From NCBI RefSeq assembly GCF_003574215.1, contig NZ_AP018558.1, positions 959,478 to 983,477 of the forward strand: 24,000 bases of DNA, written 5' to 3'. The DNA comes from Hydrogenophilus thermoluteolus. GTDB taxonomy: Bacteria > Pseudomonadota > Gammaproteobacteria > Burkholderiales > Rhodocyclaceae. Below, piece by piece: positions 1,944 to 24,000 of this stretch. Position 1 is the first letter of the stretch. The number at the start of each line of letters is the position of its first letter. Both the position numbers and the translations under genes were made by a program. Under the pieces are notes generated by a model that saw nothing but the letters and a program-made list of their open reading frames with translations, had not been told where the DNA came from and ran no database searches.

Positions 1944-4297
1944 CGCGCGGATTTCTCCTGTTGCGCGCGGGCAAGGGCCAGCGCGAGCGCCGTTACCGGT
2001 TCTTGGGGTCGAGTGGGGTTGTGTTTGGCAGGTGTGGCGGTACGGGAACGGTTGTGCGCGCCGTTGTGCGCTGTTACGGTCGTGCCGGAGGGGACACTGT
2101 TGGGTTTCCCGCTACGTTCGTGTTGGGCACGCATCGAGAGCGCAATGCGCTGCCGTGCTTTGTCCACAGAGAGCACCCGTACGCGAACGATTTGCCCCGG
2201 TTTGACGACGGTCAACGGATCTTTGACGAAGCGGTCGGCAAGTTCGGAGACATGTACCAACCCGTCTTGATGCACGCCGATATCGACGAATGCGCCGAAA
2301 TGGGTGACGTTGGTGACCACCCCTTCGAGCCACTGCCCTTCTTGGAGGTCGTCGAGCGATTCGACCCCTTCGGCGTAGCGGACGGTGCGAAACTCGCCGC
2401 GTGGATCGCGCCCCGGTTTTGCCAGCTCTTCGAGCACGTCCTGCACGGTAAAGAGGCCGAATTGCGCGTCGGTGAATTCGTTGGGGTCGATCGCGTCACG
2501 CCAGTCGCTTCGCCCCATCACCTCTTTCACCGTTTTCTGGATGCGCGCGAGTATCCGTTCCACCAGCGGATAGGCTTCGGGGTGGACGGCAGAGGCATCG
2601 AGCGGTTCGTCTCCGTCGCGAATGCGTAAGAAACCAGCACACTGTTCGAAGGTTTTTGGGCCCAGCCGGGGCACTTCGAGGAGTTGCGCGCGGCTGCGAA
2701 AGGGGCCGTGCTGGGTGCGCCACGCGACGATCTCCCGCGCTAGCGTGCGATTGAGCCCGGAGACGTAGGCGAGGAGCGCGGGCGAGGCGGTGTTGAGATC
2801 TACCCCTACGGCATTGACGCAGTCCTGAACGACCGCGTCGAGCATCCGCGCGAGTTCCACTTGATCGACGTCGTGTTGGTATTGCCCGACACCGATCGAT
2901 TTCGGGTCGATCTTCACCAACTCTGCCAGGGGATCCTGCACGCGGCGGGCGATCGAGACCGCGCCTCTGAGGCTGACATCGAGTTCCGGGAGCTCTTCAC
3001 TGGCGAGTTCGCTGGCCGAATAGATCGAAGCGCCCGCTTCCGAAACGATCAACTTCATGGGGCGTGCGTCGTGGGGCAAACGCGCAAGGAGTGTGTCGAT
3101 CAGCTTTTCGGTTTCCCGGCTCGCGGTGCCGTTGCCGACTGCGATGAGTTGCACTCGGTGTGTCGTTACCAATTCGGCGAGGCGCGCAAGTGTTGGCTCG
3201 ACGTGGCGTTTCGGTTCGAACGGGTAGCAGGTTTCCGTGGCGACGACGGCGCCGGTGGCGTCGATCACCGCGATTTTGATCCCGGTGCGAATGCCTGGGT
3301 CGATTCCCATCACGACCTGGTTGCCGGCAGGCGGCGCAAGGAGCAGCTCCTTGAGGTTCGCCGCAAAGATGCGGATCGCTTCCCGTTCCGCGTTTTCACG
3401 CATCTGGTTGAGCGCGTCGCGTTCGAGTTGCGGGTGGAGTTTGGTGCGCCAGATGCGCGCAAGGGTCTGGGTCCGCCACGCTGCTGCCGGGTCGTCGAGT
3501 CGATCCCACCCGATCCGACGGGCGATCCACGCCAGGAAGGGATGGGGCTGGTCTTCCGCGGTAGGGATATCGACGGCAAGGTGCAGCACCCCCTCGTTGC
3601 GCCCGCGTAGGAGCGCCAATGCGCGGTGTGAGGGAATAGAGCGGATCGGCTCTTCGAACGCGAACCAGTCGCGAAATTTTGCGGCGTTCGGGGCGTTGGA
3701 ATCGAGCACCTGCGACCGGATCACCGCCTCGCTCCAGAACCGTTCGCGCAACGGTTGCAACAAAGCGGCGTCTTCGCTGAGGCGTTCGCTCAAGATCGCG
3801 CGGGCCCCTTCGAGCGCCGCAGCGGCGTCGGCAAACCCTTTTTCCGGAGCGACGAACGGTGCGGCAAGCACCTCCGGCGGCGCTTCGACACGGCTCATGA
3901 GCTGTTCGGCAAGCGGTTCTAAACCCGCTTCGCGGGCAATACTCGCTTTGGTCCGACGTTTGGGTCGGTACGGCAGGTAGAGGTCTTCGAGCGCCTGTCG
4001 TGTCTCAGCCGACCGTACGGCCTGTTCGAGTTCGGCCGTGAGATGTCCCGCCTCACGGAGGGTGTTGAGGATCGTTTCCCGTCGTGCTTCGAGCGCGCGC
4101 AGTGCAAGCAGCAGGGTTTCGATTTCGCGCAGTTGAGCGTCGCTCAGCCCCCCAGTCGCTTCTTTGCGGTAGCGCGCGATGAAGGGAACCGTTGCCCCTT
4201 CGTCCATCAGCCGCACCGCGGAGATCACTTGGTGCGGCGAAACGCCAATCCGCTCGGCGATACGGGCTTCGATCGAAGGCAAGTGTGTCGTCGTCAT
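1940..4297 (-). CDS. tex: Transcription accessory protein Tex (YhgF family; S1 RNA-binding domain)
   Basis: 785-aa ORF. The N-terminus VSPHQVISAVRLMDEGATVPFIARYRKEATGGLSDAQLREIE is the Tex signature. It has a YqgF/RuvC-like core (VMGIDPGIRTGIKIAV), a helix-hairpin-helix region (LNTASPALLAYVSGLN) and a C-terminal S1 domain (GVVTNVTHFGAFVDIGVHQDGLVHVSEL). Confidence 0.9.
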   Translation of the reverse strand: MTTTHLPSIEARIAERIGVSPHQVISAVRLMDEGATVPFIARYRKEATGGLSDAQLREIETLLLALRALEARRETILNTLREAGHLTAELEQAVRSAETRQALEDLYLPYRPKRRTKASIAREAGLEPLAEQLMSRVEAPPEVLAAPFVAPEKGFADAAAALEGARAILSERLSEDAALLQPLRERFWSEAVIRSQVLDSNAPNAAKFRDWFAFEEPIRSIPSHRALALLRGRNEGVLHLAVDIPTAEDQPHPFLAWIARRIGWDRLDDPAAAWRTQTLARIWRTKLHPQLERDALNQMRENAEREAIRIFAANLKELLLAPPAGNQVVMGIDPGIRTGIKIAVIDATGAVVATETCYPFEPKRHVEPTLARLAELVTTHRVQLIAVGNGTASRETEKLIDTLLARLPHDARPMKLIVSEAGASIYSASELASEELPELDVSLRGAVSIARRVQDPLAELVKIDPKSIGVGQYQHDVDQVELARMLDAVVQDCVNAVGVDLNTASPALLAYVSGLNRTLAREIVAWRTQHGPFRSRAQLLEVPRLGPKTFEQCAGFLRIRDGDEPLDASAVHPEAYPLVERILARIQKTVKEVMGRSDWRDAIDPNEFTDAQFGLFTVQDVLEELAKPGRDPRGEFRTVRYAEGVESLDDLQEGQWLEGVVTNVTHFGAFVDIGVHQDGLVHVSELADRFVKDPLTVVKPGQIVRVRVLSVDKARQRIALSMRAQHERSGKPNSVPSGTTVTAHNGAHNRSRTATPAKHNPTRPQEPVTALALALARAQQEKSAR

Positions 4298-4327
4298 GGT
4301 ATTCGGTTCGATCCAGGCAAGGGGCGA

Positions 4328-5188
4328 TTATAGCGAGGGAAGGGCGACGAGCGACTGTCGTCCCGCCCATTCGGCTCGGGGGTCAAGGGTGATCGGTGCG
4401 GTGAGTTGCGCCGCTTCGACGCAAAGGAAACGCCGAAACCCATCTGCGGGCAGATCGGCCAGGTTGTGGTGTTCCCCGGGGTTCCAGACGACGAGATTGG
4501 CAAAGCCCGCTTGGTCGATGCCCGTGGCCACTTTGCCACTTTTCCAGAGCAGCGCGCGCGTAGGCGCTGGATAGACGCGGTTCACCGCGCGATCGACGAC
4601 CAGTTCGGGCGCGGTCTCTTTGACCGCTTGCCATTGGGCATTGGCGTCCTGGTAGGTGAGCCCGTACAAACCGGAGAGTTGGGAAAGTTCGAGTTCCGGA
4701 GTGGCCAGATAGGTATGCAATCCACCGGTGAAAGAGAGGGGGGTGCTTCCGTCGTTTCCTACCGCCAACTCGACATCCAAGCGGTCGGGGGAGAGCATTA
4801 CGGTAACTTCCGCCCACCAGCCTGAGGGGATTTCGTCACGATAGGACGCAGGGAGCGCGTCCGGCGTGAGCCGCCACGTTGCGAAGACGAACGCTGGGTC
4901 TTGTTTCTGTTCTGTCATCTGCCACAGGACGCGCCGCGCAAACCCGTGGCGTGTGCGGGGGCCCTGGTCGGCCCACTGCGGAAAGATCACTGGGATGCCG
5001 CCGCGAATGGGGGTAACGCCATCCCCTGGGTTTTTGGGGCTCAGGTAGAGCCGTTCGATGCCGTCGGTGGGGATCCAGGAAAGCACGTGCGCGCCCCAGT
5101 GGCTCACCGTGACCTGAGCACCGCCAATCTGAAGCCGCACGACGTCGAGCCCGCACCAGCGGTCGGTGGTGATTGCGGTCGGAGTCAT
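4328..5188 (-). CDS. Aldose 1-epimerase family protein, D-hexose-6-phosphate mutarotase-like (YeaD-like)
   Basis: I trimmed the track ORF 4328..5437 to the ATG at 5186-5188 (MTPTAITTDRW...). A GAGG Shine-Dalgarno sits about 9 nt upstream, and the longer version would overlap the pat gene. The motifs IRGGIPVIFPQW, HGFAR and FLCVEAA are typical of the YeaD/aldose-epimerase family. Confidence 0.7.
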   Translation of the reverse strand: MTPTAITTDRWCGLDVVRLQIGGAQVTVSHWGAHVLSWIPTDGIERLYLSPKNPGDGVTPIRGGIPVIFPQWADQGPRTRHGFARRVLWQMTEQKQDPAFVFATWRLTPDALPASYRDEIPSGWWAEVTVMLSPDRLDVELAVGNDGSTPLSFTGGLHTYLATPELELSQLSGLYGLTYQDANAQWQAVKETAPELVVDRAVNRVYPAPTRALLWKSGKVATGIDQAGFANLVVWNPGEHHNLADLPADGFRRFLCVEAAQLTAPITLDPRAEWAGRQSLVALPSL

Positions 5189-5199
5189 CTTCGATTGCC

Positions 5200-7893
5200 T
5201 CAATGCAGCGGTTGCAAGGGAAGGACACCGTGCTTGATCGTTCGATCTTCGGGGTCGTCGGAGAGGGTGAAACCGAGACTCGCGACGAACCGCAGCATCC
5301 GTTCGTTGTTTGCGAGAAAGACACCGCGCATCTCTTTGAGGCCTCGGTTGCGTGCCGTTTCGATCAGCACCTGCATCAGTTTGCGCGCAAGCCCCCGGTG
5401 CTGCCACGCATCGGCAACGACGATCGCGAATTCGCACGTTTCGCCGTCGGGGTTTACCGCGTACCGCGCCACCCCCAGTTCGATCTCTTTGCCGTTTTGT
5501 GTCGTGACCGCGATGAACGCCATTTCGCGGTCGTAGTCGATTTGGGTGAGGCGCGCGAGCATCGCGGGCGGCAGCTCGTTGAGCGTGGTCATGAAACGGA
5601 AGTACTTCGTCTGTGGCGAGAGGTTGCGGACGAACTCCGCTTCCAGTTCGGCGTCTTCCGGCCGGATGGGGCGGATCAGCACGTCGGTGCCGTCAGGCAG
5701 CGTCCAATGTTGGACGAGGTGAGACGGGTAGGGGTGGATCGCCATGTGCGCGTAGCGATCCTGTGACGGGTTCGTAGGGGTGAGCGAAATTTTGGCGTCG
5801 AGCGCGATCGCGTCGTGTTCGTCGACGATCAGCGGGTTGATGCTCAGATATTCGATCCACGGCAATTCGCAGACCATTTCTGAAACCCGCAGCAGGACGT
5901 ATTCCAGCCGTTCGAGCGCTACCGCGGGCATGTTGCGCCACTCCTGCAGCATCGGATAGATGCGGCTCGACCGAACCAGGTCGTGCGCCAGGTATTTGTT
6001 GAACGGCGGCAGCGCAACCGACATGTCCGCTTCGGGAACGGCCCGTTTGCCCCCTTCGCCGAAGTAGATCACCGGCCCGAAGACGGGGTCGCGTTTGACG
6101 CGGATCATCACCTCGCGGCCGTAACGACGAATCACCATCGGTTCGATCACTACCCCTTCGATTTCCGCTTCAGGCGCATTTTTTTGCACTTCGGCGACGA
6201 TCTCCTGAAACGCGGTGCGTACCGCCGCCATGGTGGTGAGGTTGAGTCGCACTCCGCCGCTGTCGGCTTTGTCGATGACGTTTTTCGCCTGAATTTTCAT
6301 CGCCACCGGCAGTCCAATCTCTTCGGCGAGCACGATCGCTTCGGTGACGGTGCGCGCCAGCATCGCTTGGGCAATCGGGATGCGAAACGCAGAAAGGACC
6401 GCTTTGGCCTCCATCTCGTTGAGGCGTAGCCGCCGTTCGGTGAGCGCGGCTTCGATGATCAGTTCGGCGCTCTCGATGCGCGGCGCTTCGAAATGGGTGA
6501 GCGGCGGGGGGGTCTGCGCCAGCAGTTTTTGGTTTCGGTAGTACGACGAGACGTGCGAGAAGAGCTCGACCGCAGGTTCCGGCGCACGGAAGGTGGGGAT
6601 CCCCGCCGCTTGGAATTTTTGCCGCGCTTCCTGGACGTGCGCCTCTCCCATCCAGCAGGTGACGACCGGTTTGTCGGCTTTCGCTTCGAGTGCGATGATC
6701 CGGTCTGCGACCGCGGTGGGGTCGGTCATCGCCTGGGGCGTGAGAATCACCAGGATCCCGTCGACCTCTTTCGCAGCCAGAAGGGTTTGAAACGCAGCGC
6801 CGTAGCGTTCGGCGTCGGCGTCGCCCAAAATATCGACCGGGTTGGCGTGGGACCAGTTCTGGGGCAGCAGTTTGTCGAGTGCTTCGCGGGTGGTATCCCC
6901 GAGTTCCGCAAGCGGAATGCCCAGGTCCGCGGCGCGGTCGGCAGCCATCGCGCCGATTCCGCCGCCGTTCGTGAGGATCGCCAAGCGGTTGCCGCGCGGA
7001 CGAAGTCGGGCAAAAAGCGCGGAGAGCGCGGCGTAGAGCTGCGAGATGTTATAAAGACGAATCACGCCACTACGCCGCAAGGCCGCGTCGAACACTTTGT
7101 CGTCACCCGGTTGATGGGCAGCGTGGAGATGAATCGTGCGCATCACCTCGGGGTGACGCCCTGCTTTGAGCACCAAAACCGGTTTGACGCGCGCCGCGGC
7201 GCGTAGCGCACTCATGAAGCGGCGGGCATTCTTGATCCCTTCGATGTAGAGCACGATCGCTTCGGTGCGGTAGTCTTGCGCCAGGAAGTCGAGCACTTCG
7301 GCAAAATCGATATCGACGCTTGCGCCAAGCGAGACCACTGCCGAAAACCCGACCCCCGCCGGTTTTGCCCAGTCGAGTACCGCGGAACAGAGCGCACCGG
7401 AGTGGGAGATGAACCCGATCGACCCTTTGAGCGGAGCAGTCAGGGCAAATGAAGCGTTGAGCCCGATCTGCGGGCGCATCACGCCCAGGCAGTTTGGGCC
7501 CAAAAGGCGCATCCGGTAGCGGCGTGCGGTTTCGATCAGTTGCCGCTCCAACCGTTCACCGCGAGCACCCGTTTCGGCAAAACCGGCAGAGAGTACCGCA
7601 ACCATCTTGACGCCAGCCCTGCCGCACCCTTCGACCACACCGATCACCTTTTCCGCCGCGACGCAGATCACCGCAAGATCGATGCGGTGGGGAACCTCTT
7701 CGATCGACGGATAAGAGGGGAGATCGAAGATTTTTTTATGTTTGGGGTTGACCGCAAAGAGGCGGCCGGTGTACCCACTGTCGATCAGGTTGCGGATCAC
7801 GGTTCGACCCAATGACCCGGCACGTTCGGAAGCACCGATCACGGCGACCGAGCGCGGTTCGATCAACGGTTGCAAGTAGTGGTTCTCCTGCAC
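5200..7893 (-). CDS. pat: Pat/YfiQ-type protein lysine acetyltransferase (ADP-forming acetyl-CoA synthetase-like domains fused to a C-terminal GNAT)
   Basis: 897-aa ORF with a GTG start at 7891-7893. AGGAG (complement of 7903-7907) lies 9 nt upstream. It has an N-terminal CoA-binding block (PRSVAVIGASERAGSLGRTVIRNL), an ATP-grasp middle region, and a C-terminal GNAT (IRPIRPEDAELEAEFVRNLS...QHRGLARKLMQ). Size and architecture match E. coli YfiQ/PatZ. Confidence 0.8.
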   Translation of the reverse strand: MQENHYLQPLIEPRSVAVIGASERAGSLGRTVIRNLIDSGYTGRLFAVNPKHKKIFDLPSYPSIEEVPHRIDLAVICVAAEKVIGVVEGCGRAGVKMVAVLSAGFAETGARGERLERQLIETARRYRMRLLGPNCLGVMRPQIGLNASFALTAPLKGSIGFISHSGALCSAVLDWAKPAGVGFSAVVSLGASVDIDFAEVLDFLAQDYRTEAIVLYIEGIKNARRFMSALRAAARVKPVLVLKAGRHPEVMRTIHLHAAHQPGDDKVFDAALRRSGVIRLYNISQLYAALSALFARLRPRGNRLAILTNGGGIGAMAADRAADLGIPLAELGDTTREALDKLLPQNWSHANPVDILGDADAERYGAAFQTLLAAKEVDGILVILTPQAMTDPTAVADRIIALEAKADKPVVTCWMGEAHVQEARQKFQAAGIPTFRAPEPAVELFSHVSSYYRNQKLLAQTPPPLTHFEAPRIESAELIIEAALTERRLRLNEMEAKAVLSAFRIPIAQAMLARTVTEAIVLAEEIGLPVAMKIQAKNVIDKADSGGVRLNLTTMAAVRTAFQEIVAEVQKNAPEAEIEGVVIEPMVIRRYGREVMIRVKRDPVFGPVIYFGEGGKRAVPEADMSVALPPFNKYLAHDLVRSSRIYPMLQEWRNMPAVALERLEYVLLRVSEMVCELPWIEYLSINPLIVDEHDAIALDAKISLTPTNPSQDRYAHMAIHPYPSHLVQHWTLPDGTDVLIRPIRPEDAELEAEFVRNLSPQTKYFRFMTTLNELPPAMLARLTQIDYDREMAFIAVTTQNGKEIELGVARYAVNPDGETCEFAIVVADAWQHRGLARKLMQVLIETARNRGLKEMRGVFLANNERMLRFVASLGFTLSDDPEDRTIKHGVLPLQPLH

Positions 7894-7924
7894 GGCGAAA
7901 CTCTCCTAGGGCATTGCGGCGAAG

Positions 7925-7959
7925 TGTACCGCATCGCACCGACTCTGTGCGCGTACAAT
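7925..7959. repeat. Imperfect inverted repeat TGTACCGCA-N14-TGCGcGTACA overlapping a TACAAT -10-like hexamer in the pat/gabD divergent intergenic region
   Basis: 7925-7933 is TGTACCGCA. 7948-7957 is TGCGCGTACA, its reverse complement with one extra C. TACAAT is at 7954-7959. Confidence 0.25.
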
Positions 7960-7999
7960 CCCACTTATTCGCAAACGATTCGTTCGAACGACCAGGGAG

Positions 8000-9472
8000 A
8001 TGACGATGCACGAATGGCTGAACCACTTGACGCAAACCCGGTGTTGGCAAACGAACGCCTATTGGGGTGGTGCGTGGCATCCGGGATCGGGCCGATTTCC
8101 AGTGCGGAACCCCGCAACCGGAGAGGTGATTGCCGAAGTGGCCGACTGTGGGCGCAACGAGACCGAAGCGGCGATCGCCGCGGCGGCGCAAGCCTTCCCC
8201 GCCTGGAAAAATGCCCTCGCGAAAGAGCGTTCGGCGCTGTTGCGCCAATGGCATGCGCGCATCATCGAAAACGCCGAACCCCTGGCGCAATTGATCACGC
8301 TCGAGTGTGGCAAACCGCTTGCGGAATCGCGGGGTGAAATCGCCTATGCGGCGTCGTTCGTCGAGTGGTTCGCCGAAGAGGCGAAACGGGTTTATGGCGA
8401 TCTCATCCCAACCCCGCAGGCGGATCGGCGACTCATGGCGTGGAAACAGCCCGTTGGGGTGTGCGCGGCGATCACACCGTGGAATTTTCCCGCCGCGATG
8501 ATCACCCGTAAGGTGGCTCCGGCGCTTGCGGTGGGGTGCACGGTGGTGGTGAAGCCGGCGGAGCAAACCCCGCTCACGGCTCTGGCTTTGGCGGCGCTGG
8601 CAGAAGCCGCTGGTTTTCCCACCGGGGTGTTCAATGTGATCACCGGCAGTCGGCCGGATGTGATCGGCGAGACGCTCACCGCGAGCCCGATCGTGCGCAA
8701 ACTCTCCTTTACCGGCTCGACCGAAGTCGGTCGCCTCTTGATGGCGCAATGCGCACCGACGTTGAAGCGCCTCTCGTTTGAACTGGGTGGCAACGCCCCG
8801 TTCATCGTGTTCGACGATGCTGACCTGGACGCGGCAGTGGCCGGGGCGCTGGCGTCGAAATACCGGAACGCCGGGCAGACGTGTGTCTGCGCCAACCGGT
8901 TGATCGTCCAAGAGGGGATCTACGACGCTTTTGCGGAACGGTTCGCTGCGGAAGTGGCCAAGTTGCGCGTCGGTCCCGGGTGGGAAGCGGGGGTCGCGGT
9001 GGGGCCGCTCATCGATGCTGCGGCAGTCGCCAAAGTGACGCGCTTGGTCGAAGAGGCGGTGTCTCGCGGGGCGCAAGTACGTTGCGGCGGGCATCTGCTC
9101 ACGGAATTGGGCAACCAGTTCTACGCCCCCACGGTGCTCACGAACGTCACCGCGGAGATGGCGATCGCCAGTGAAGAGATCTTTGGCCCCGTCGCGCCCA
9201 TCTACCGTTTTCGTACCGACGACGAAGCCGTCGTGCTTGCGAACGCGACCGAATATGGCCTTGCAGCCTACTTCTACGCGCGCGACGTGGGGCGCGTCTG
9301 GCGGGTAGCCGAGCAGCTCGACTACGGGATGATCGGGATCAACACCGGGATCATCTCGAGCGAGGTTTTCCCCTTTGGCGGCGTCAAACAGTCGGGGTTT
9401 GGCCGCGAAGGGTCGAAGTACGGGGTCGACGAATACCTAGAGGTGAAGGCGATCTGTCTTGCCGGCGTGTGA
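8000..9472 (+). CDS. gabD: Succinate-semialdehyde dehydrogenase, NAD(P)+-dependent (aldehyde dehydrogenase family)
   Basis: 490-aa ORF with ALDH motifs: FELGGNAP (catalytic Glu), GQTCVCANR (catalytic Cys), ITPWNFP and FTGSTEVG. The N-terminal pattern is GabD-like (NPATGEVIAEVADCGRNETEAAIAAA). The ATG at 8006 is an equally plausible start, because AGGGAG at 7993-7998 is better spaced for it. Confidence 0.8.
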   Translation: MTMHEWLNHLTQTRCWQTNAYWGGAWHPGSGRFPVRNPATGEVIAEVADCGRNETEAAIAAAAQAFPAWKNALAKERSALLRQWHARIIENAEPLAQLITLECGKPLAESRGEIAYAASFVEWFAEEAKRVYGDLIPTPQADRRLMAWKQPVGVCAAITPWNFPAAMITRKVAPALAVGCTVVVKPAEQTPLTALALAALAEAAGFPTGVFNVITGSRPDVIGETLTASPIVRKLSFTGSTEVGRLLMAQCAPTLKRLSFELGGNAPFIVFDDADLDAAVAGALASKYRNAGQTCVCANRLIVQEGIYDAFAERFAAEVAKLRVGPGWEAGVAVGPLIDAAAVAKVTRLVEEAVSRGAQVRCGGHLLTELGNQFYAPTVLTNVTAEMAIASEEIFGPVAPIYRFRTDDEAVVLANATEYGLAAYFYARDVGRVWRVAEQLDYGMIGINTGIISSEVFPFGGVKQSGFGREGSKYGVDEYLEVKAICLAGV

Positions 9473-9502: not shown

Positions 9503-10096
9503 ATGAGGGAAAGGAGCCGTAATGTGGGGTGTGGATCGGTCGGTTCGAGCAGAGGCAGTGCTTGGCGCGACCTTTGGGTGGGCGCGCTCGTTTTGACCCT
9601 GTTCTCAGGGGGTGTCACCGCATCGGGTCTTGAGCCCTCGACGCGCGGCGCTGCGCCGCTTGCTGAGGGTTCCGCGACCCTGTCTGCCGAAGCTGCGGCG
9701 GAATGGGAGGGGCGGCAAACGGTTACCGAAGCCGAAGTCGAGGCGGCGATCGCGACCCTTCGTTGCGGGCAAACCCCGTTCTTTTGGTGTGCCGGTGGGA
9801 TCGGCTTGGAGGAGCGGGTGGCGTTACAACGGCTCAGAGACCGTTTTACGGTCTGCGTCGAGTGGGCGCAAAAGGAGCGCCCTTACCTTGCTGAAGCGAC
9901 CTTGACCCTCGAAAACGACTCCGGCGCGGTGGTTTGGCAAGGCGGCGGGTTGGGGCCGCTTTGGTGTGCGCAGTTGCCAACAGGGCGTTATCGGTTGGTC
10001 GCCTCTGCGCTCCCAGTCGTCGAATATCCCCCTCAGGATCGCTGGGTCGAGGTGACGCCGCAAGCACCCCTTAGGCGCGTGACGTTTCTCTGGTAA
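9503..10096 (+). CDS. Hypothetical exported protein (signal-peptide-like N-terminus, 5 Cys, C-terminal beta-sandwich-like segment)
   Basis: 197-aa ORF preceded by a strong SD, AAGGGAGG (9491-9498). The hydrophobic segment LWVGALVLTLFSGGVTASG is followed by an Ala/Glu-rich stretch. I recognise no family. The tail LPTGRYRLVASA weakly resembles carboxypeptidase-regulatory-like folds. Confidence 0.55.
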   Translation: MRERSRNVGCGSVGSSRGSAWRDLWVGALVLTLFSGGVTASGLEPSTRGAAPLAEGSATLSAEAAAEWEGRQTVTEAEVEAAIATLRCGQTPFFWCAGGIGLEERVALQRLRDRFTVCVEWAQKERPYLAEATLTLENDSGAVVWQGGGLGPLWCAQLPTGRYRLVASALPVVEYPPQDRWVEVTPQAPLRRVTFLW

Positions 10097-11245: not shown

Positions 11246-12301
11246 ATGACAGCAGCGGTACGGTTGACAGCGCTCGCGCACGGTGGCGGCTGCGGGTGCA
11301 AGATTGCGCCCGGCGTACTCGAACGGCTCTTGCGGGAGATTCCAACGGGGTGCGTTCCCCCTGAGCTCTTGGTGGGTTATGACAAAACCGACGACGCTGC
11401 GGTATGGCGATTGAACGAGACGCAGGCGCTCATCGCCACCACCGACTTTTTCCTTCCCGTCGTCGATGATCCGTTCGACTTCGGCGCGATCGCTGCGACC
11501 AATGCGCTTTCCGACGTCTATGCGATGGGGGGACGCCCGATCCTGGCGCTTGCGGTCGTCGGGATGCCCGTCGGAAAACTGCCCGAGGCGGTGATCGCGC
11601 AGATTTTCGCGGGCGGCGCTTCGGTGTGCCGCGAAGCAGGGGTGGCGCTTGCCGGGGGCCATTCGATCGACTGCGTCGAGCCGTTTTACGGCCTGGTCGC
11701 GCTGGGGCTGGCACACCCCCGGGAGATCAAGACCAACGCCGGGGCGCGGCCGGGCGACCAGTTGATCCTGACCAAACCGCTTGGGATTGGCATCCTCTCC
11801 GCGGCGCTCAAGAAGGGATTGCTGACTCCAGACGAATATGCGGAAATGCGGCGGTGGACCACCTGTCTCAACCAGGTGGGAGCCCGTTTGGCCGCCGACC
11901 CGGAGGTGCATGCGCTCACCGACGTCACCGGTTTCGGCCTGGCGGGACACGGATGGGAGATGGCGCGTGCAAGCGGTGTGGTGGTGCGTTTCCACGCAGC
12001 GGCGCTGCCGGTGTTGCCCGCAGCGCTCCGTTACCTTCGCGAAGGGATCAGCACGGGCGCTGCAACGCGCAACTGGCAAAGCTACGGCAACGCGATCGAC
12101 CTCTCTGCGCTGCCGGAAGCAAAGCGCGCCTGGTGGCAAGCGGTCGTCACCGATCCGCAAACGAGCGGTGGTCTTTTGATTGCGTGCGCCCCTTCTGCGG
12201 TGGAGCGGGTGTTGCGCGCGATCTCGGAGACGCAAGGCGGAGGTGGGGTGGTGATCGGTTCGGTAGTCGCCGGAACGCCAAAAGTTGAGGTATTGCCGTG
12301 A
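11246..12301 (+). CDS. selD: Selenide, water dikinase (selenophosphate synthetase), Cys-type
   Basis: I trimmed the track ORF 11171..12301 to the ATG at 11246, which has AAGGAG at 11230-11235. The N-terminus LTALAHGGGCGCKIAPGVLERLL is the SelD glycine-rich/Cys loop, with Cys rather than an in-frame TGA. AIR-synthase-like domains follow (DDAAVWRL, LSDVYAMGG, TDVTGFGLAGH). Confidence 0.9.
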   Translation: MTAAVRLTALAHGGGCGCKIAPGVLERLLREIPTGCVPPELLVGYDKTDDAAVWRLNETQALIATTDFFLPVVDDPFDFGAIAATNALSDVYAMGGRPILALAVVGMPVGKLPEAVIAQIFAGGASVCREAGVALAGGHSIDCVEPFYGLVALGLAHPREIKTNAGARPGDQLILTKPLGIGILSAALKKGLLTPDEYAEMRRWTTCLNQVGARLAADPEVHALTDVTGFGLAGHGWEMARASGVVVRFHAAALPVLPAALRYLREGISTGAATRNWQSYGNAIDLSALPEAKRAWWQAVVTDPQTSGGLLIACAPSAVERVLRAISETQGGGGVVIGSVVAGTPKVEVLP

Positions 12302-13332
12302 ACGGATCGGCGCATCGGGCGGTAACCGGTTGGGGGCGTCGCGCGCTGCTGTTAGCAACCCCGATCGTTCTGCTCTGGGGAACTGTCCTCTCCCTCAAAC
12401 TCACGCCCGCCTTTTTTGCGGGTGTGCTCACCTTTGGTGCCTCTCAGGCGATGACCCAGCGTTTTGCTCGCTCGCCCGCTTTTGCCCGCCATGCGCGTCT
12501 CTATTCTGCCGCGGTGGTGGCCGTGGTGACGCTCCTTTTGATCGTCGGATTGGTCGAGTTCGTCTTGTGGGCGCCGCAAGCGATCCCAAAGCTCTTCAAA
12601 CAGTTGGCGACCACGCTCGAACAGTTACGGGTTCTGCTGCCCGCCTGGGCGAGCTATCTGCCCGATTCGGTTGATACCGTGCGCCGCGAGGTGATCGTAT
12701 GGCTCAAAGCGAACGCAGCGGCGGTGCAGAGTTGGGGGCTGCACACCGCACGGGGGATAGGGTACGTGATCCTGGGGCTCGTCATCGGTGGGCTGGCGGC
12801 CGTTCAGGTTGCCTGGTCTAGCAGCGATGCCCCCAATCCCAAACCGCTTCCCCCTTTGGCGCAGGCCATTTTCGACTACACGCGCGAGCTCGTCGCCAGT
12901 TTTACCCAGGTCGTTTTTGCCCAGGTGAAGATCTCTCTGGTGAACACCGCGCTCACCGCCGTTTTTTTGGTGGGGATTTTGCCACTTCTAGGGCGAACGT
13001 TGCCGCTCACCCCAGTCCTGCTGGTCGTCACTTTTGTGGCGGGGCTGCTTCCTGTGGTGGGTAATCTCATCTCGAACACCATCACCACGTTGGTGGCGTT
13101 GAGCGTCTCGGTGATCGACGCGGTACTGGCCCTGGGTTGGCTCGTTTTCATCCACAAACTGGAGTACTTTTTGAACGCCCACATCATCGGCAACCGCATC
13201 CGCTCCCACGCGTGGGAGATTTTGACGATGATGGTGGTGCTGGAGGCGGCATTTGGGGTGGCTGGGGTGGTGAGCGCCCCCGTTTTCTTCGCGCAACTCA
13301 AATCGACCCTGCGGCGCGAGGGGCTGCTGTGA
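12298..13332 (+). CDS. AI-2E family transporter (PerM/UPF0118-like inner-membrane permease)
   Basis: 344-aa ORF with a GTG start overlapping the selD stop (GTGA, 12298-12301). It has multiple hydrophobic helices. The block LLPVVGNLISNTITTLVAL...FIHKLEYFLNAHIIGNRI is characteristic of the AI-2E/PerM family. Confidence 0.8.
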   Translation: MNGSAHRAVTGWGRRALLLATPIVLLWGTVLSLKLTPAFFAGVLTFGASQAMTQRFARSPAFARHARLYSAAVVAVVTLLLIVGLVEFVLWAPQAIPKLFKQLATTLEQLRVLLPAWASYLPDSVDTVRREVIVWLKANAAAVQSWGLHTARGIGYVILGLVIGGLAAVQVAWSSSDAPNPKPLPPLAQAIFDYTRELVASFTQVVFAQVKISLVNTALTAVFLVGILPLLGRTLPLTPVLLVVTFVAGLLPVVGNLISNTITTLVALSVSVIDAVLALGWLVFIHKLEYFLNAHIIGNRIRSHAWEILTMMVVLEAAFGVAGVVSAPVFFAQLKSTLRREGLL

Positions 13333-21068: not shown

Positions 21069-21160
21069 ACAAAAACTCGCCGGTTTTTTGATCCAGGTCA
21101 AAGAAGCCCGTGAATAACTATGGTAATGTGAAAAATACCACACGTGCCATGGGGTGGCGT

Positions 21161-21931
21161 ATGCGCAATCTAGAACTATACCGCGATTCGAACCACCTGT
21201 GCGTGCTTTTGCACGAAACCGAAGGGAATGAAGAGGAAGGCATTCACTCGAATCAGTATCTCATTTTGCACCGGGAGGAGGGGGTATTGCTCGACCCCGG
21301 CGGTTTCGGCGTGATGCCCGACGTGCTCGAAGCGATGCTCGACTACTGCACGCCGGAGCAGATCAAGGCGATCATCCTTTCGCACCAGGACCCGGACATC
21401 GTCGGCGGGTTAGCTTCCTGGCTCGAGATCACACAAGCTCAGGTGTGGATTTCGCGTTTGTGGACCCGCTTCATTCCCCATTATGGTCTCCCACCCAAGG
21501 CGGTCGAGCGCCTTATCGCGATTCCCGACGAAGGGGCACGCTTCACCTGGAACGACGGTACGGAACTGGAGCTCCTGCCGGCTCATTTCCTCCATTCCGA
21601 AGGCAATTTCCACGTCTATGACCCCACCAGCCAGATCCTCTTTTCAGGCGACCTCGGTGCAGCGGAGATGAGCAGTGCGGCACTCAGCCCATTTGTCGAT
21701 GACTTCCCCGCTCACGTTTGCCAAATTGCCGGATTTCACCGTCGCTACATGGTGAGTCACCGTGCGGTTGCCGTATGGCGCGCGACCCTGGGGGATCGAC
21801 CGCTCTCGATGATCGCCCCGCAGCACGGAGCGATCTACCGTGGTCGTGCGATCACTGATTTCCTTGCCTGGATCGACGAACTGCCTTGCGGCGTCGATTG
21901 CCTACAGCCAGGCGGGAGATTCCTTCCGTGA
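21161..21931 (+). CDS. Stand-alone metallo-beta-lactamase-fold protein of the flavodiiron-core / oxygen-binding diiron protein (ODP) type, with no flavodoxin domain
   Basis: Track ORF 21110..21931. The 21110 start is a GTG in an AT-rich intergenic stretch. I prefer the ATG at 21161 (GGGG 6 nt upstream). The ATG at 21149 is an alternative. The blocks [38 protein letters not shown] and IAPQHGAIY line up with the metal-ligand blocks of flavodiiron protein cores. Confidence 0.7.
21914..21918 (+). promoter_or_regulatory. Shine-Dalgarno (GGGAG) for the GGDEF-EAL gene, embedded in the 3' end of the diiron-protein gene
   Basis: GGGAG lies 9 nt upstream of the GTG at 21928. The only other in-frame start candidates after the upstream stop (21856-21858) are TTG at 21886 and 21898. 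Confidence 0.4.
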
Positions 21932-24000
21932 ACCGTTTCGTCCCCAGTAATCTGGTCGTTTTGCGCCGTGACGTGCTTCGCGCCGCGAGCGCGCTCCTGG
22001 AAGAGCAGGTTCGGGCTAGCCAGGCCTTCTCGGCAATCGCCAAGACGCTTCACCGCGTTCACGGAGAACTGGCCAATTCGCTTGCGGAATTGGCTGGGAG
22101 AGCCGATGCGGACCTTACCGTTCGGCAATTGGCCAGACGGTGCCAAACGCTGAGAACGACTCTTGCGCTCGTCGAGCAACACTATCAGGCCGATGTCGTC
22201 CGGCAGCGCGATGCGTTGCGCGCCCTTCTTGCGGCGTTCAACGAAAGCAGCAAAGTGCTGGCGCAGACGTTGGTAGAAAAGGATCTTCTCGATCGCCACC
22301 GGATGGTGCTCGAGCGGGTTGTCCTCTCCTACGAACGGGTGATCAACTGGCTGCCCTTCATCGAAGAGGTGCTCAAGGAGTTTCACGCGATTTTTCCGTT
22401 CGACCTCTTTTTCGTCGCGTTTGCGGAAAAGCATGGGTTGACCGCGCACCTCTTCTACCCAGGGCGACCCACAGCGGCACAGCGATCCGATCTGGAACCA
22501 CAACTCGTGCGCGAACTCCTTGCGCGTTTGAACCAACCGTTTGATGCCGCTGTCGACCTGGCGGTCCATTACCTGGATTGGACGCCGTGGTTTGGGATCG
22601 CGACAGCGCAATGCTATCAATTGCTCACCGAGAAGGTGCCCGATCATCGCTCAGGACTGGCCGGTATTCTTGGTGTTGGCTTTGGCACCGCGCAACCGCT
22701 CAGCGCGCAAGAGCAAACCGTGATCCGCTCGCTCTTGGCAATCCTGGTGATCGTCGTCGGGTCTAGCCGGGCGCTTTCAGACACGCTGCGCGAGCTTGAG
22801 TATTTTTCGATGCACGATCCGCTCACCCACCTCTACAACCGCCGCCATTTTCTCCACATGCTCGAGTACGAGATCGGTCGCAGCGAACGGCACCAGCATG
22901 CGTTTAGCCTCATCATGATCGATCTCGACGATTTCAAGGAGATCAACGACACCTACGGTCACCCCGCAGGTGACCTGGCGCTCACAGAGCTTGCGAACGT
23001 GCTCCAGGCGCAAGTTCGGCAAGGCGACCTCGCTTGCCGGATTGGCGGCGATGAGTTCATCTTGTTGCTTCCCGAAACGCCGCTGGAGGGTGCTAAGGCG
23101 CTCGCGCGCAAACTCTGTGATCGGTTGCGCGCCCATCGTTATTTCTATCAAGGGACCTCATTTCATGTGACCTGTTCACTGGGCATTGTGAGCTACCCGC
23201 AAGACGGAAAGTCGGTCCATGAACTCCTAGCGCACGCCGATCTGGCTGCCTATGAGGCAAAACGGCGAGGAAAAGACGAAATCTGCGCTTATGACGACCT
23301 CAAAACGCGCCGGACGGGCGGCGCTTTGACGCGTGACTCCCTTGCCGAGCAGCGCAGCGAGGTGGAAGCGCTTCGCGAAGCGCTCGCCGAGCGACGCATT
23401 GTTCCGTTTTTTCAACCGATCGTCGATATGGCAAGCGGTCAGGTGGTTGCGTTCGAGGTGCTCGCCCGCCTCATCCCGTCGGTAGGCGACCCGATCCCAG
23501 CAGGACGGTTCATCACGGTAATCGAAAAATATGGTTTGGGACGCGAACTCGACCGCCAGATCATTGCAGCAGCGCTCGCGGCGTTGCGTGACTTTCCAGG
23601 GGAAAAACCCACCCTTTTTCTCAACCTATCGGTACAGGAGATCCAAAACCGCAACGTGCTCGGTTTTGCGGCACGCCTTTGCCACCAGTGGGGGCTGGAT
23701 CCCGGCCGCATCGTCTTCGAGCTCTTGGAGCGGCACGCCGTCGACGATCTCGAGAAGTTGCGCCAGTTCATCCGGCAATTGCGCAAAAGAGGGTTCCGGT
23801 TTGCGCTCGACGACTTTGGCAGCGGCTACAACAGCTTGCACTATCTGCGGGAACTGGAGCTCGATTTCGTCAAGATCGACGGCGCGTTCGTGCGGGGCAT
23901 GCAAACGTCGCGCATCGACGAGGCGCTGGTGCGTAACCTCTCCAATCTCTGTGCGGATCTCGGCATGCAGACGGTAGCGGAATTCGTCGAAAATGACGAA
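21928..24000 (+). CDS. Cytoplasmic signalling protein: helical N-terminal region plus GAF-like region, then GGDEF diguanylate cyclase and EAL phosphodiesterase (3' end beyond the window)
   Basis: I translated this by hand. It is an open frame of 691 codons from the GTG at 21928 to the window end, absent from the ORF track because it has no stop. The GTG overlaps the upstream TGA (GTGA), and SD GGGAG sits at 21914-21918. RIGGDEF is at 23041-23058 and RQGD (I-site) at 23017-23028. EAL-domain motifs are FEVLARL (23452-23472), FLNLS, FELLER, DDFGSGYNS and KIDG. Confidence 0.85.
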   Translation, partial: MNRFVPSNLVVLRRDVLRAASALLEEQVRASQAFSAIAKTLHRVHGELANSLAELAGRADADLTVRQLARRCQTLRTTLALVEQHYQADVVRQRDALRALLAAFNESSKVLAQTLVEKDLLDRHRMVLERVVLSYERVINWLPFIEEVLKEFHAIFPFDLFFVAFAEKHGLTAHLFYPGRPTAAQRSDLEPQLVRELLARLNQPFDAAVDLAVHYLDWTPWFGIATAQCYQLLTEKVPDHRSGLAGILGVGFGTAQPLSAQEQTVIRSLLAILVIVVGSSRALSDTLRELEYFSMHDPLTHLYNRRHFLHMLEYEIGRSERHQHAFSLIMIDLDDFKEINDTYGHPAGDLALTELANVLQAQVRQGDLACRIGGDEFILLLPETPLEGAKALARKLCDRLRAHRYFYQGTSFHVTCSLGIVSYPQDGKSVHELLAHADLAAYEAKRRGKDEICAYDDLKTRRTGGALTRDSLAEQRSEVEALREALAERRIVPFFQPIVDMASGQVVAFEVLARLIPSVGDPIPAGRFITVIEKYGLGRELDRQIIAAALAALRDFPGEKPTLFLNLSVQEIQNRNVLGFAARLCHQWGLDPGRIVFELLERHAVDDLEKLRQFIRQLRKRGFRFALDDFGSGYNSLHYLRELELDFVKIDGAFVRGMQTSRIDEALVRNLSNLCADLGMQTVAEFVENDE
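22810..23292 (+). other. GGDEF domain of the 21928.. protein (approximate boundaries)
   Basis: The domain runs from MHDPLTHLYNRRHF through IMIDLDDFKEINDTYGHPAGD and RIGGDEF to AHADLAAYEAKRRGKD. Confidence 0.8.
23359..24000 (+). other. EAL domain of the 21928.. protein (N-terminal about 210 residues; truncated by the window end)
   Basis: PFFQPIVDMASGQVVAFEVLARL, GLGRELDRQI, LFLNLS, IVFELLER, FALDDFGSGYNSLHYLREL and DFVKIDGAFV. Confidence 0.8.

Follow-up and report, generated by a model that had tools for sequence, protein, structure and literature searches.

In a 24,000-nucleotide stretch of the Hydrogenophilus thermoluteolus genome (assembly GCF_003574215.1, contig NZ_AP018558.1, positions 959,478 to 983,477 of the forward strand; hereafter the window), two overlapping genes encode a small stand-alone protein of the ODP (oxygen-binding diiron protein) family and a large cytoplasmic enzyme of four segments, a helix-loop-helix, a GAF-like domain, GGDEF and EAL. 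We found that the ODP and the helical N-terminus of the enzyme are held together in a strict two-way genetic linkage. Both proteins could be assigned to their families, the catalytic motifs of the enzyme were intact, and a fold could be modelled for its N-terminus. We propose that the two genes probably form a sensor-effector unit, in which the ODP relays O2/Fe(II) status to the GGDEF-EAL enzyme and shifts the balance between synthesis and hydrolysis of cyclic di-GMP (c-di-GMP). An earlier note on this DNA had arrived at such a pair from the letters alone, and its interpretation is supported as far as sequence analysis reaches.

The earlier note had suggested checking whether the two genes stay together across genomes, and in all genomes that could be evaluated they do. 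A scan with an ODP alignment, one genome per species, gave at least 570 loci, of which the best 80 (53-100% identity) were taken; one of these ends at the ODP gene, leaving 79 evaluable. In all 79 species genomes the ODP gene was followed on the same strand by a gene for a protein of about 725 amino acids with the same four segments. The junction between the two genes lay between -11 and +10 nucleotides (nt) in 77 of the 79; the genes of 24 loci overlapped by 4 nt, and those of 25 were separated by 2 nt. Junctions were measured from the start codon nearest to the ODP stop, which favours small gaps, but the protein alignments begin there. The pair was seen in Hydrogenophilus, Tepidiphilus, Methyloversatilis, Azoarcus/Parazoarcus and Zoogloea, in Gallionella, Sideroxydans and Ferrovum, in Methylophilaceae, Curvibacter and Rhodoferax, and in the gammaproteobacterial methanotrophs Methylobacter, Methylovulum, Methylocaldum and Methylomicrobium; the larger groups covered include Rhodocyclales, Gallionellaceae, Comamonadaceae and Methylococcales. 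The ODP-GGDEF/EAL pairing is far beyond chance.

The linkage was also examined in the reciprocal direction. Six proteins, the most divergent partners of the representative search, with 21-36% identity to the N-terminus of the enzyme (P0128, P0130, P0142, P0150, P0156 and P0172) were each encoded with an ODP gene immediately upstream. Three control proteins, which carry the same GAF-like-GGDEF-EAL core behind other inputs, had no ODP gene nearby: P0169 with a PilJ-N input, P0158 (844 amino acids) with an unassigned N-terminus and P0131 with a PAS+HAMP input. P0127, of the PAS-HAMP type, was left out of the controls, as only 88 nt of its contig precede the gene. Since all six of the reciprocal proteins and none of the three controls had an ODP, the presence of ODP follows the short cytoplasmic helical N-terminus and not the core.

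Some loci depart from the common arrangement. Loose junctions were found only at L049 (6771-7001, 229 nt) and L078 (6750-6774, 23 nt), both from metagenome-assembled genomes, and the first ~20 residues of the helix-loop-helix are apparently absent from the L049 partner; either case could reflect a sequencing error or a truncated start. In P0131 (L097 1911-7179) and P0127 (L090 89-2800), an N-terminal PAS + HAMP stands on the same core in place of the ODP and the helical module. This looks like a swapped-in alternative sensory input, perhaps for O2 or redox. At L097, a gene for an Aer-like PAS-HAMP receptor of the methyl-accepting chemotaxis protein (MCP) type lies directly upstream of P0131.

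The small protein matched the Pfam family PF19583 (ODP) over the entire profile (positions 1-194 of 194) at 6.5e-71, with 238.7 bits against a cut-off of 27.2. It could be aligned end to end with the two solved ODPs, that of Treponema denticola (PDB 6qrq, 7.5e-67, 45% identity) and that of Thermotoga maritima (PDB 6qnm, 5.3e-64, 41% identity). The only other Pfam match was Lactamase_B, the generic model of the metallo-beta-lactamase (MBL) superfamily (PF00753, 2.6e-22), and this was also the sole MBL model that the protein passed. Neither a flavodoxin domain nor another output domain was found by Pfam, in agreement with the earlier reading of the protein. That reading had left it to a profile and PDB search to place the protein with ODPs or with zinc hydrolases, and the search placed it with ODPs. 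The flavodiiron NorV model gave 13.6 bits against a cut-off of 635, and the flavodiiron structure 4dik matched at about 4e-3. Among zinc hydrolases, the SoxH-related model gave 22.7 bits against 300 and the B1 lactamase model 17.9 against 200, and ordinary MBL hydrolases matched at 1e-2 or worse. A flavodiiron enzyme was thus rejected, because the scores are far under the family cut-off and the flavodoxin domain is missing, and so was a zinc hydrolase, because the hydrolase families fall far below their cut-offs while the match to ODP is strong. By its sequence, the small protein is a clear member of the ODP family, which comprises more than 6000 homologous clusters at E <= 1e-10. Homology predicts for it a di-iron centre that would bind O2 and signal how much Fe(II) is available.

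The ligand blocks SHQDPD, FLHSEG, LFSGD and PQHG, which had been noticed earlier as the blocks of a flavodiiron core in a protein of about 256 amino acids, were all located, and their conservation was examined in 14 homologues. Residues H75, Q76, D77, P78 and D79 were invariant; HQDPD is identical in the T. denticola and T. maritima ODPs, and the preceding serine is present in the T. maritima ODP only. Residues H142 to G148 were invariant, in a block that aligns with AHFLHS of the T. denticola ODP, as were L160, F161, G163 and D164 and the whole of APQHG. The ligand pattern HxDxD, HxxH, D, H is present, with HQDPD, AHFLHS, LFSGD and APQHG identical to the T. denticola ODP, the assignment of residues to iron being from sequence alignment only. 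The aspartate of LFSGD (D164) is, we presume, the residue that bridges both metals in flavodiiron proteins. Two longer in-frame starts exist for this gene, GTG 21110 and ATG 21149, and the form from GTG 21110 is the choice of the gene-caller only. Because M1 and N3 were invariant and R2 nearly so among the homologues, ATG 21161 is taken as the conserved start.

The two genes overlap by 4 nt, and the Shine-Dalgarno sequence of the second lies inside the first, as had been recognised before. In the Tepidiphilus and Methyloversatilis orthologues, where the same 4-nt overlap occurs, an ATG aligned with the GTG start of the partner gene. Such an overlap would favour co-production of ODP and partner. 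The partner, described earlier as a protein of at least 691 amino acids with GGDEF followed by EAL, is open for 691 codons to the end of the window; a longer metagenome contig from the same organism supplied 37 more codons and gave a full gene of 728 amino acids. The catalytic residues were compared in 73 full-length partner orthologues taken from genomes. The GGDEF motif (residues 373-377) and the metal/substrate residues D332, D334, N340 and D341 were invariant, and the RxxD inhibitory site, RQGD at residues 364-367, was intact, with RxxD invariant. In the EAL domain, E510, which sits in an EVL variant of the EAL motif, N566, E598, E601, D628, D629, K649, E685 and Q705 were likewise invariant. 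Since the catalytic residues of both domains are invariant, both the cyclase and the phosphodiesterase activity are expected to be retained, and the partner is predicted to be a bifunctional c-di-GMP enzyme.

The partner is cytoplasmic, with no convincing membrane segment. The statement that it lacks a transmembrane segment stands with one qualification: in a Kyte-Doolittle window of 19 residues, the stretch 265-283 (VIRSLLAILVIVVGSSRAL) reaches 1.96, with a hydrophobic run of only ~11 residues. This stretch was modelled within the exit helix that ends the GAF-like domain, and in relatives the module lies between a cytoplasmic HAMP and GGDEF; for these reasons we do not regard it as a membrane span.

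The N-terminal region of about 290 residues had been called unrecognised. This held for Pfam, which found nothing in residues 1-290, including no GAF match, but three segments could now be modelled there: a helix-loop-helix, a GAF-like domain and a signalling helix. An AlphaFold2 (AF2) model of residues 1-300, built on an alignment with 39 relatives, had a mean pLDDT of 88.5 and a pTM of 0.72. In this model, a helix (7-56) is joined by a short loop to a very long helix (63-155), followed by a five-stranded alpha/beta domain (160-254) and an exit helix (260-296) that runs on into GGDEF. The helix-loop-helix would most simply be an antiparallel hairpin. A Foldseek search with the model returned mostly GAF domains as top PDB matches (3p01, 4g3v, 4g3k, 6ob8 and 3k2n), though the statistics were weak, with E-values of 7e-3 to 0.1 and a target-normalised TM-score of up to 0.62, at probabilities as high as 1.0. 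Because these statistics were weak and no Pfam GAF match was found, we call the domain GAF-like.

Residues 1-115 had no Pfam or PDB sequence match, and a PDB profile search returned generic helical bundles only. When residues 1-293 were searched exhaustively with HMMER against 1.84 billion representatives, only 74 clusters were found. Residues 1 to ~100 were confined to proteins of ~720-740 amino acids with the same architecture and to shorter partial entries, and an ODP gene adjoined in every case looked up. Residues ~100-293 also occurred in longer proteins, after PAS+HAMP or a PilJ N-domain, and always directly before GGDEF-EAL. Within the helix-loop-helix, R13, E25, Q27 and R29 were nearly invariant in 77 orthologues.

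The window and three metagenome contigs have an unbroken partner gene, unlike the assembly of Hydrogenophilus thiooxidans SS56, which is 99% identical to the window. That assembly is without 164 bp of the gene (window 22686-22849; L004 7525/7526), from the end of the GAF-like domain to the start of GGDEF, and the gene is frameshifted into two open reading frames (ORFs). The ends of the gap showed no obvious direct repeat. The loss is either a strain-specific inactivation or an assembly error.

Both types of ODP system were found side by side in one metagenome locus, L092 (JGI 3300005360, 3225-9092), which makes it a natural case for the study of ODP partner specificity. Here the gene for one ODP (ODP1) overlaps the gene for a GGDEF-EAL partner, and ~3.4 kb further lies a cluster in the order MCP-MCP-ODP2-MCP, in which three sensor-less MCP genes, encoding MCPsignal only, surround the gene for a second ODP (ODP2). 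The ODP of the window was 54% identical to ODP1 and 44% to ODP2. ODP2 was 48% and 46% identical to the Thermotoga and Treponema ODPs, respectively, and 43% to ODP1 of its own locus. By these identities the ODPs sort by partner type, as would be expected if each ODP recognises its own partner. We also considered whether the helical N-terminus might be left over from, or imitate, the hairpin of ODP-binding MCPs. When the hairpin profile was compared by hhalign with the three sensor-less MCPs of L092 and with the local Aer-like MCP, the probability was at most 1.1%, no clearer than for shuffled sequences. Homology was rejected on this result together with the generic bundles of the PDB search. 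The likeness between the helical N-terminus and the MCP hairpin may instead be a structural analogy.

The relay that we propose would run as follows. The ODP would dock on the N-terminal helical module of the enzyme, which is presumably dimeric, and loading with iron and O2 would alter the conformation or the association state of the ODP. This change would travel via the long helix, the GAF-like domain and the signalling (exit) helix, and the balance of cyclase and phosphodiesterase would be reset in one direction or the other. For the chemotaxis system, Muok is said to have shown in 2019 that peroxo-bound ODP destabilises phospho-CheA. In two reports on T. denticola, ODP is described as an O2 sensor that acts via a separate sensor-less receptor (PMC7666581), and its interaction with its receptors as conformation-dependent (PMC6978683). 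For the pair described here, the binding of metal and O2, the contact, the docking site and the regulatory effect are what we infer.

Several observations weigh against a dedicated relay from ODP to enzyme. No sequence relationship was detected between the helical N-terminus and ODP-coupled chemoreceptors. Because E25, Q27 and R29 cannot all point to one side of a helix, their role may be in the structure and not in docking. Only three proteins could be evaluated as controls, which is a small set. The true sensor could be the GAF-like domain, through a ligand that it binds itself. Finally, 172 nt downstream of the pair there is a gene for an Aer-like PAS-MCP, so that the ODP could also, or instead, address that receptor, and such a gene flanks the pair in 11 of 81 loci.

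The last two points lead to alternatives. The GAF-like domain might be the primary sensor, for a small molecule, with the ODP as an accessory that, for example, buffers iron or O2 or scavenges for protection. Ligand binding is common among GAF domains; the module here was confidently modelled, and it is kept in relatives that have no ODP and use other inputs. In those relatives, however, it always stands between an upstream sensor (PAS+HAMP or PilJ-N) and GGDEF, which is the position of a transmitter, and the strict two-way co-occurrence of ODP and helical N-terminus argues for a specific pairing. The ODP, moreover, has no electron-supplying domain for a catalytic turnover of O2 or NO. We consider this explanation unlikely.

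Still less probable, in our judgement, is that the Aer-like PAS chemoreceptor is the true partner of the ODP, with chemotaxis as the output as in Treponema and the GGDEF-EAL gene merely co-transcribed. The only characterised ODP does signal through a chemoreceptor (PMC7666581, PMC6978683). No terminator-like site was found between the GGDEF-EAL gene and the PAS-MCP gene, in a scan that did no better than on shuffled sequence, and this was counted in favour of the chemoreceptor. Yet the PAS-MCP is missing from ~86% of the loci and, where present, is either upstream or downstream, whereas the GGDEF-EAL partner was there in every evaluable genome with an overlapping or nearly abutting junction. 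The known ODP receptors have no sensor domain (PMC7666581), whereas this MCP has its own PAS sensor, and the classical sensor-less MCP cluster of L092 has its own second ODP. As most loci do without it and it brings a sensor of its own, the PAS-MCP is unlikely to be the primary partner.

The MBL superfamily includes nucleases and phosphodiesterases. It is nonetheless very improbable that the small protein is a metallo-hydrolase of the same pathway, degrading for example pGpG or another nucleotide product: it has the MBL fold and some databases name its homologues 'hydroxyacylglutathione hydrolase' or 'MBL fold metallo-hydrolase', but these names are automatic annotation, the match to the ODP family is ~50 orders of magnitude better than that to generic MBL models, the zinc hydrolase matches are far under their cut-offs, and the ligand blocks are common to this protein and the solved di-iron O2 binders.

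To our knowledge, ODP is the only sensor built on the MBL/flavodiiron fold, and it has been studied solely as an input to chemotaxis. A relay from ODP to the GGDEF-EAL enzyme, if true, would extend ODP sensing to c-di-GMP, through which bacteria chiefly switch between swimming and attachment. The cassette is common, with an ODP relative in at least 570 genome stretches and the pair in all evaluable cases among the best 80. Its carriers are mainly microaerophilic iron oxidisers, methanotrophs, methylotrophs and floc formers, whose ecology centres on the position in O2/Fe(II) gradients and on the formation of stalks, flocs or biofilms. More tentatively, and with rather less confidence than in the relay itself, we suggest that the helix-loop-helix of ~100 residues might be an undescribed dedicated ODP receiver without a Pfam family, which would make a generic core into a c-di-GMP switch controlled by Fe(II)/O2, and that the cassette might be a main route by which iron and oxygen gradients are coupled to the choice between attachment and motility at oxic-anoxic interfaces (Gallionella, Sideroxydans, Ferrovum, Methylobacter, Methylophilaceae, Zoogloea and Hydrogenophilus). 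As the pair is small, soluble and available from thermophiles (Hydrogenophilus and Tepidiphilus), it offers a practical system for the study of di-iron control of a bifunctional enzyme.

The idea of the pairing is not new. According to the TREND paper, the 2019 ODP study found operons that join ODPs to MCPs or to other signal-transduction genes, as well as fusions of ODPs with signalling domains, and that paper with the legend of its Fig. S1 shows that ODP-GGDEF/EAL operons were already in published gene-neighbourhood analyses (PMC7319448). Natural ODP-GGDEF fusions, too, are reported in a published analysis. No experimental work on the ODP-GGDEF/EAL pair was found in the open literature, in line with the earlier note, and ODP does not figure in a broad 2022 survey of the sensory inputs to c-di-GMP (PMC8846402). 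Added here are the strict two-way linkage, the conserved abutting or overlapping junction, the modelled anatomy of the partner N-terminus and the confinement of its first ~100 residues to this architecture, the intactness of both catalytic domains, and the occurrence of two ODP system types in one locus.

The features of the pair are collected in Table 1. Upstream, the ODP gene is separated by a spacer of ~90 nt from the divergent thyA gene on the minus strand. No consensus sigma-70 promoter was found in this spacer, and in scans for promoters and terminators the surroundings of the operon did not exceed shuffled sequence in the number of sites. The surrounding genes are housekeeping genes: minC, hsp33, tex, a gene for a Pat-like acetyltransferase, an aldehyde dehydrogenase gene, selU, selD, mrp, dcd, an Orn/Lys/Arg decarboxylase gene, folA and thyA. 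The locus is not a chemotaxis or biofilm island. Downstream, after the MCP gene and a thioesterase gene, genes for a Crp/FNR-type regulator and a NapC/NirT-type cytochrome c were seen (L001 15052-16155), and the neighbourhood of ODP, Aer-like MCP, Crp/FNR and NapC/NirT has an oxygen/respiration flavour. An Aer-like MCP stands beside the pair elsewhere as well, for example in Zoogloea (L015 and L022), which suggests a recurrent three-gene neighbourhood for O2/redox behaviour.

Two further ORFs of the window had no Pfam or NCBIfam match. One, of 344 amino acids (12298-13332, plus strand), begins 4 nt ahead of the stop codon of selD (11246-12301). It lies opposite selU and is a possible candidate for an uncharacterised partner in the selenium pathway. 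The other, of 197 amino acids (9503-10096, plus strand), lies between the aldehyde dehydrogenase gene and selU.

Table 1. Positions of the features of the ODP-GGDEF/EAL gene pair and of the adjoining chemoreceptor gene (window coordinates unless a locus is named).
Feature	Position	Strand	Basis or remark
Shine-Dalgarno-like GGGGTGG, purine-rich, 5' of the ODP start	21151..21157	+	read from sequence
ODP gene, ATG 21161 to TGA 21931	21161..21931	+	256 amino acids, stand-alone, MBL fold
SHQDPD block, residues 74-79, first metal-ligand motif	21380..21397	+	alignment to solved ODPs
HFLHSEG block, residues 142-148, second ligand motif (FLHSEG, residues 143-148, 21587-21604)	21584..21604	+	alignment
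LFSGD block, residues 160-164	21638..21652	+	identical in both solved ODPs
PQHG block, residues 220-223, last ligand motif	21818..21829	+	APQHG identical in both solved ODPs
GGGAG Shine-Dalgarno of the partner gene, within the ODP coding sequence	21914..21918	+	9 nt 5' of GTG; read from sequence
GTGA, 4-nt overlap: partner start GTG 21928-21930 over ODP stop TGA 21929-21931	21928..21931	+	sequence
Partner residues 1-115, N-terminal helix-loop-helix (with the first part of helix 63-155), candidate ODP-receiving module	21928..22272	+	AF2 model
Partner residues ~116-296, divergent GAF-like alpha/beta domain with long entry helix and exit (signalling) helix	22273..22815	+	AF2, Foldseek
GGDEF domain, residues 295-450	22810..23277	+	PF00990 at 2.9e-50
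EAL domain, residue 480 onward, cut by the window end	23365..24000	+	PF00563 at 2.3e-56
Aer-type PAS chemoreceptor, 469 amino acids	L001 13177-14586; ~1.2 kb past the window end		172 nt downstream of the GGDEF-EAL gene

Among known systems, the nearest is the ODP-chemoreceptor system of T. denticola (TDE2498 with TDE2496), together with the T. maritima ODP (Muok et al. 2019, PNAS): the family PF19583, the ligand blocks and the stand-alone size of ~250 amino acids are the same. As in Treponema (PMC7666581), the ODP here is genetically coupled to a separate cytoplasmic signalling protein. Unlike in Treponema, this partner is a helix-loop-helix/GAF-like/GGDEF-EAL enzyme and not a sensor-less MCP, and the predicted output is c-di-GMP and not control of CheA; the two partners have no detected sequence similarity, and by identity the ODPs fall into two groups, one for each partner type.

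In its logic, a stand-alone gas sensor encoded beside a c-di-GMP enzyme, the pair is like the H-NOX systems with GGDEF-EAL enzymes (Shewanella woodyi SwH-NOX/SwDGC and Legionella Hnox1/Lpg1057). There, the stand-alone H-NOX binds the adjacent GGDEF-EAL protein, and in S. woodyi it toggles cyclase versus phosphodiesterase activity (PMC8846402). The sensors are not homologous: that of the H-NOX systems is a NO-specific heme protein, whereas that of the present pair is a non-heme di-iron ODP of the MBL fold, expected to respond to O2/Fe(II). The pair is thus not of the H-NOX/HaCE type by its sensor, though it may work alike.

A non-heme di-iron centre signals O2 or redox state to a c-di-GMP enzyme also in the hemerythrin-coupled enzymes, Bhr-DGC of Vibrio cholerae and Bhr-HD-GYP of Ferrovum (PMC8846402), and Ferrovum, an iron oxidiser, has the ODP cassette as well (L061). 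There, however, the sensor is a four-helix bundle fused to the enzyme, whereas here it is a separate protein of the MBL fold. With the flavodiiron proteins (FprA and the flavorubredoxin NorV), the ODP shares the MBL-like fold of the di-iron core, and its sequence is weakly similar to theirs (PDB 4dik, 4e-3); since it has no flavodoxin domain, it would, unlike them, have no electron supply for the reduction of O2 or NO. In E. coli, an O2-responsive cyclase and phosphodiesterase, DgcO/PdeO (DosC/DosP), are likewise encoded together (PMC8846402), but there heme sensors are fused to two enzymes, whereas the pair described here combines one bifunctional enzyme with a separate di-iron sensor.

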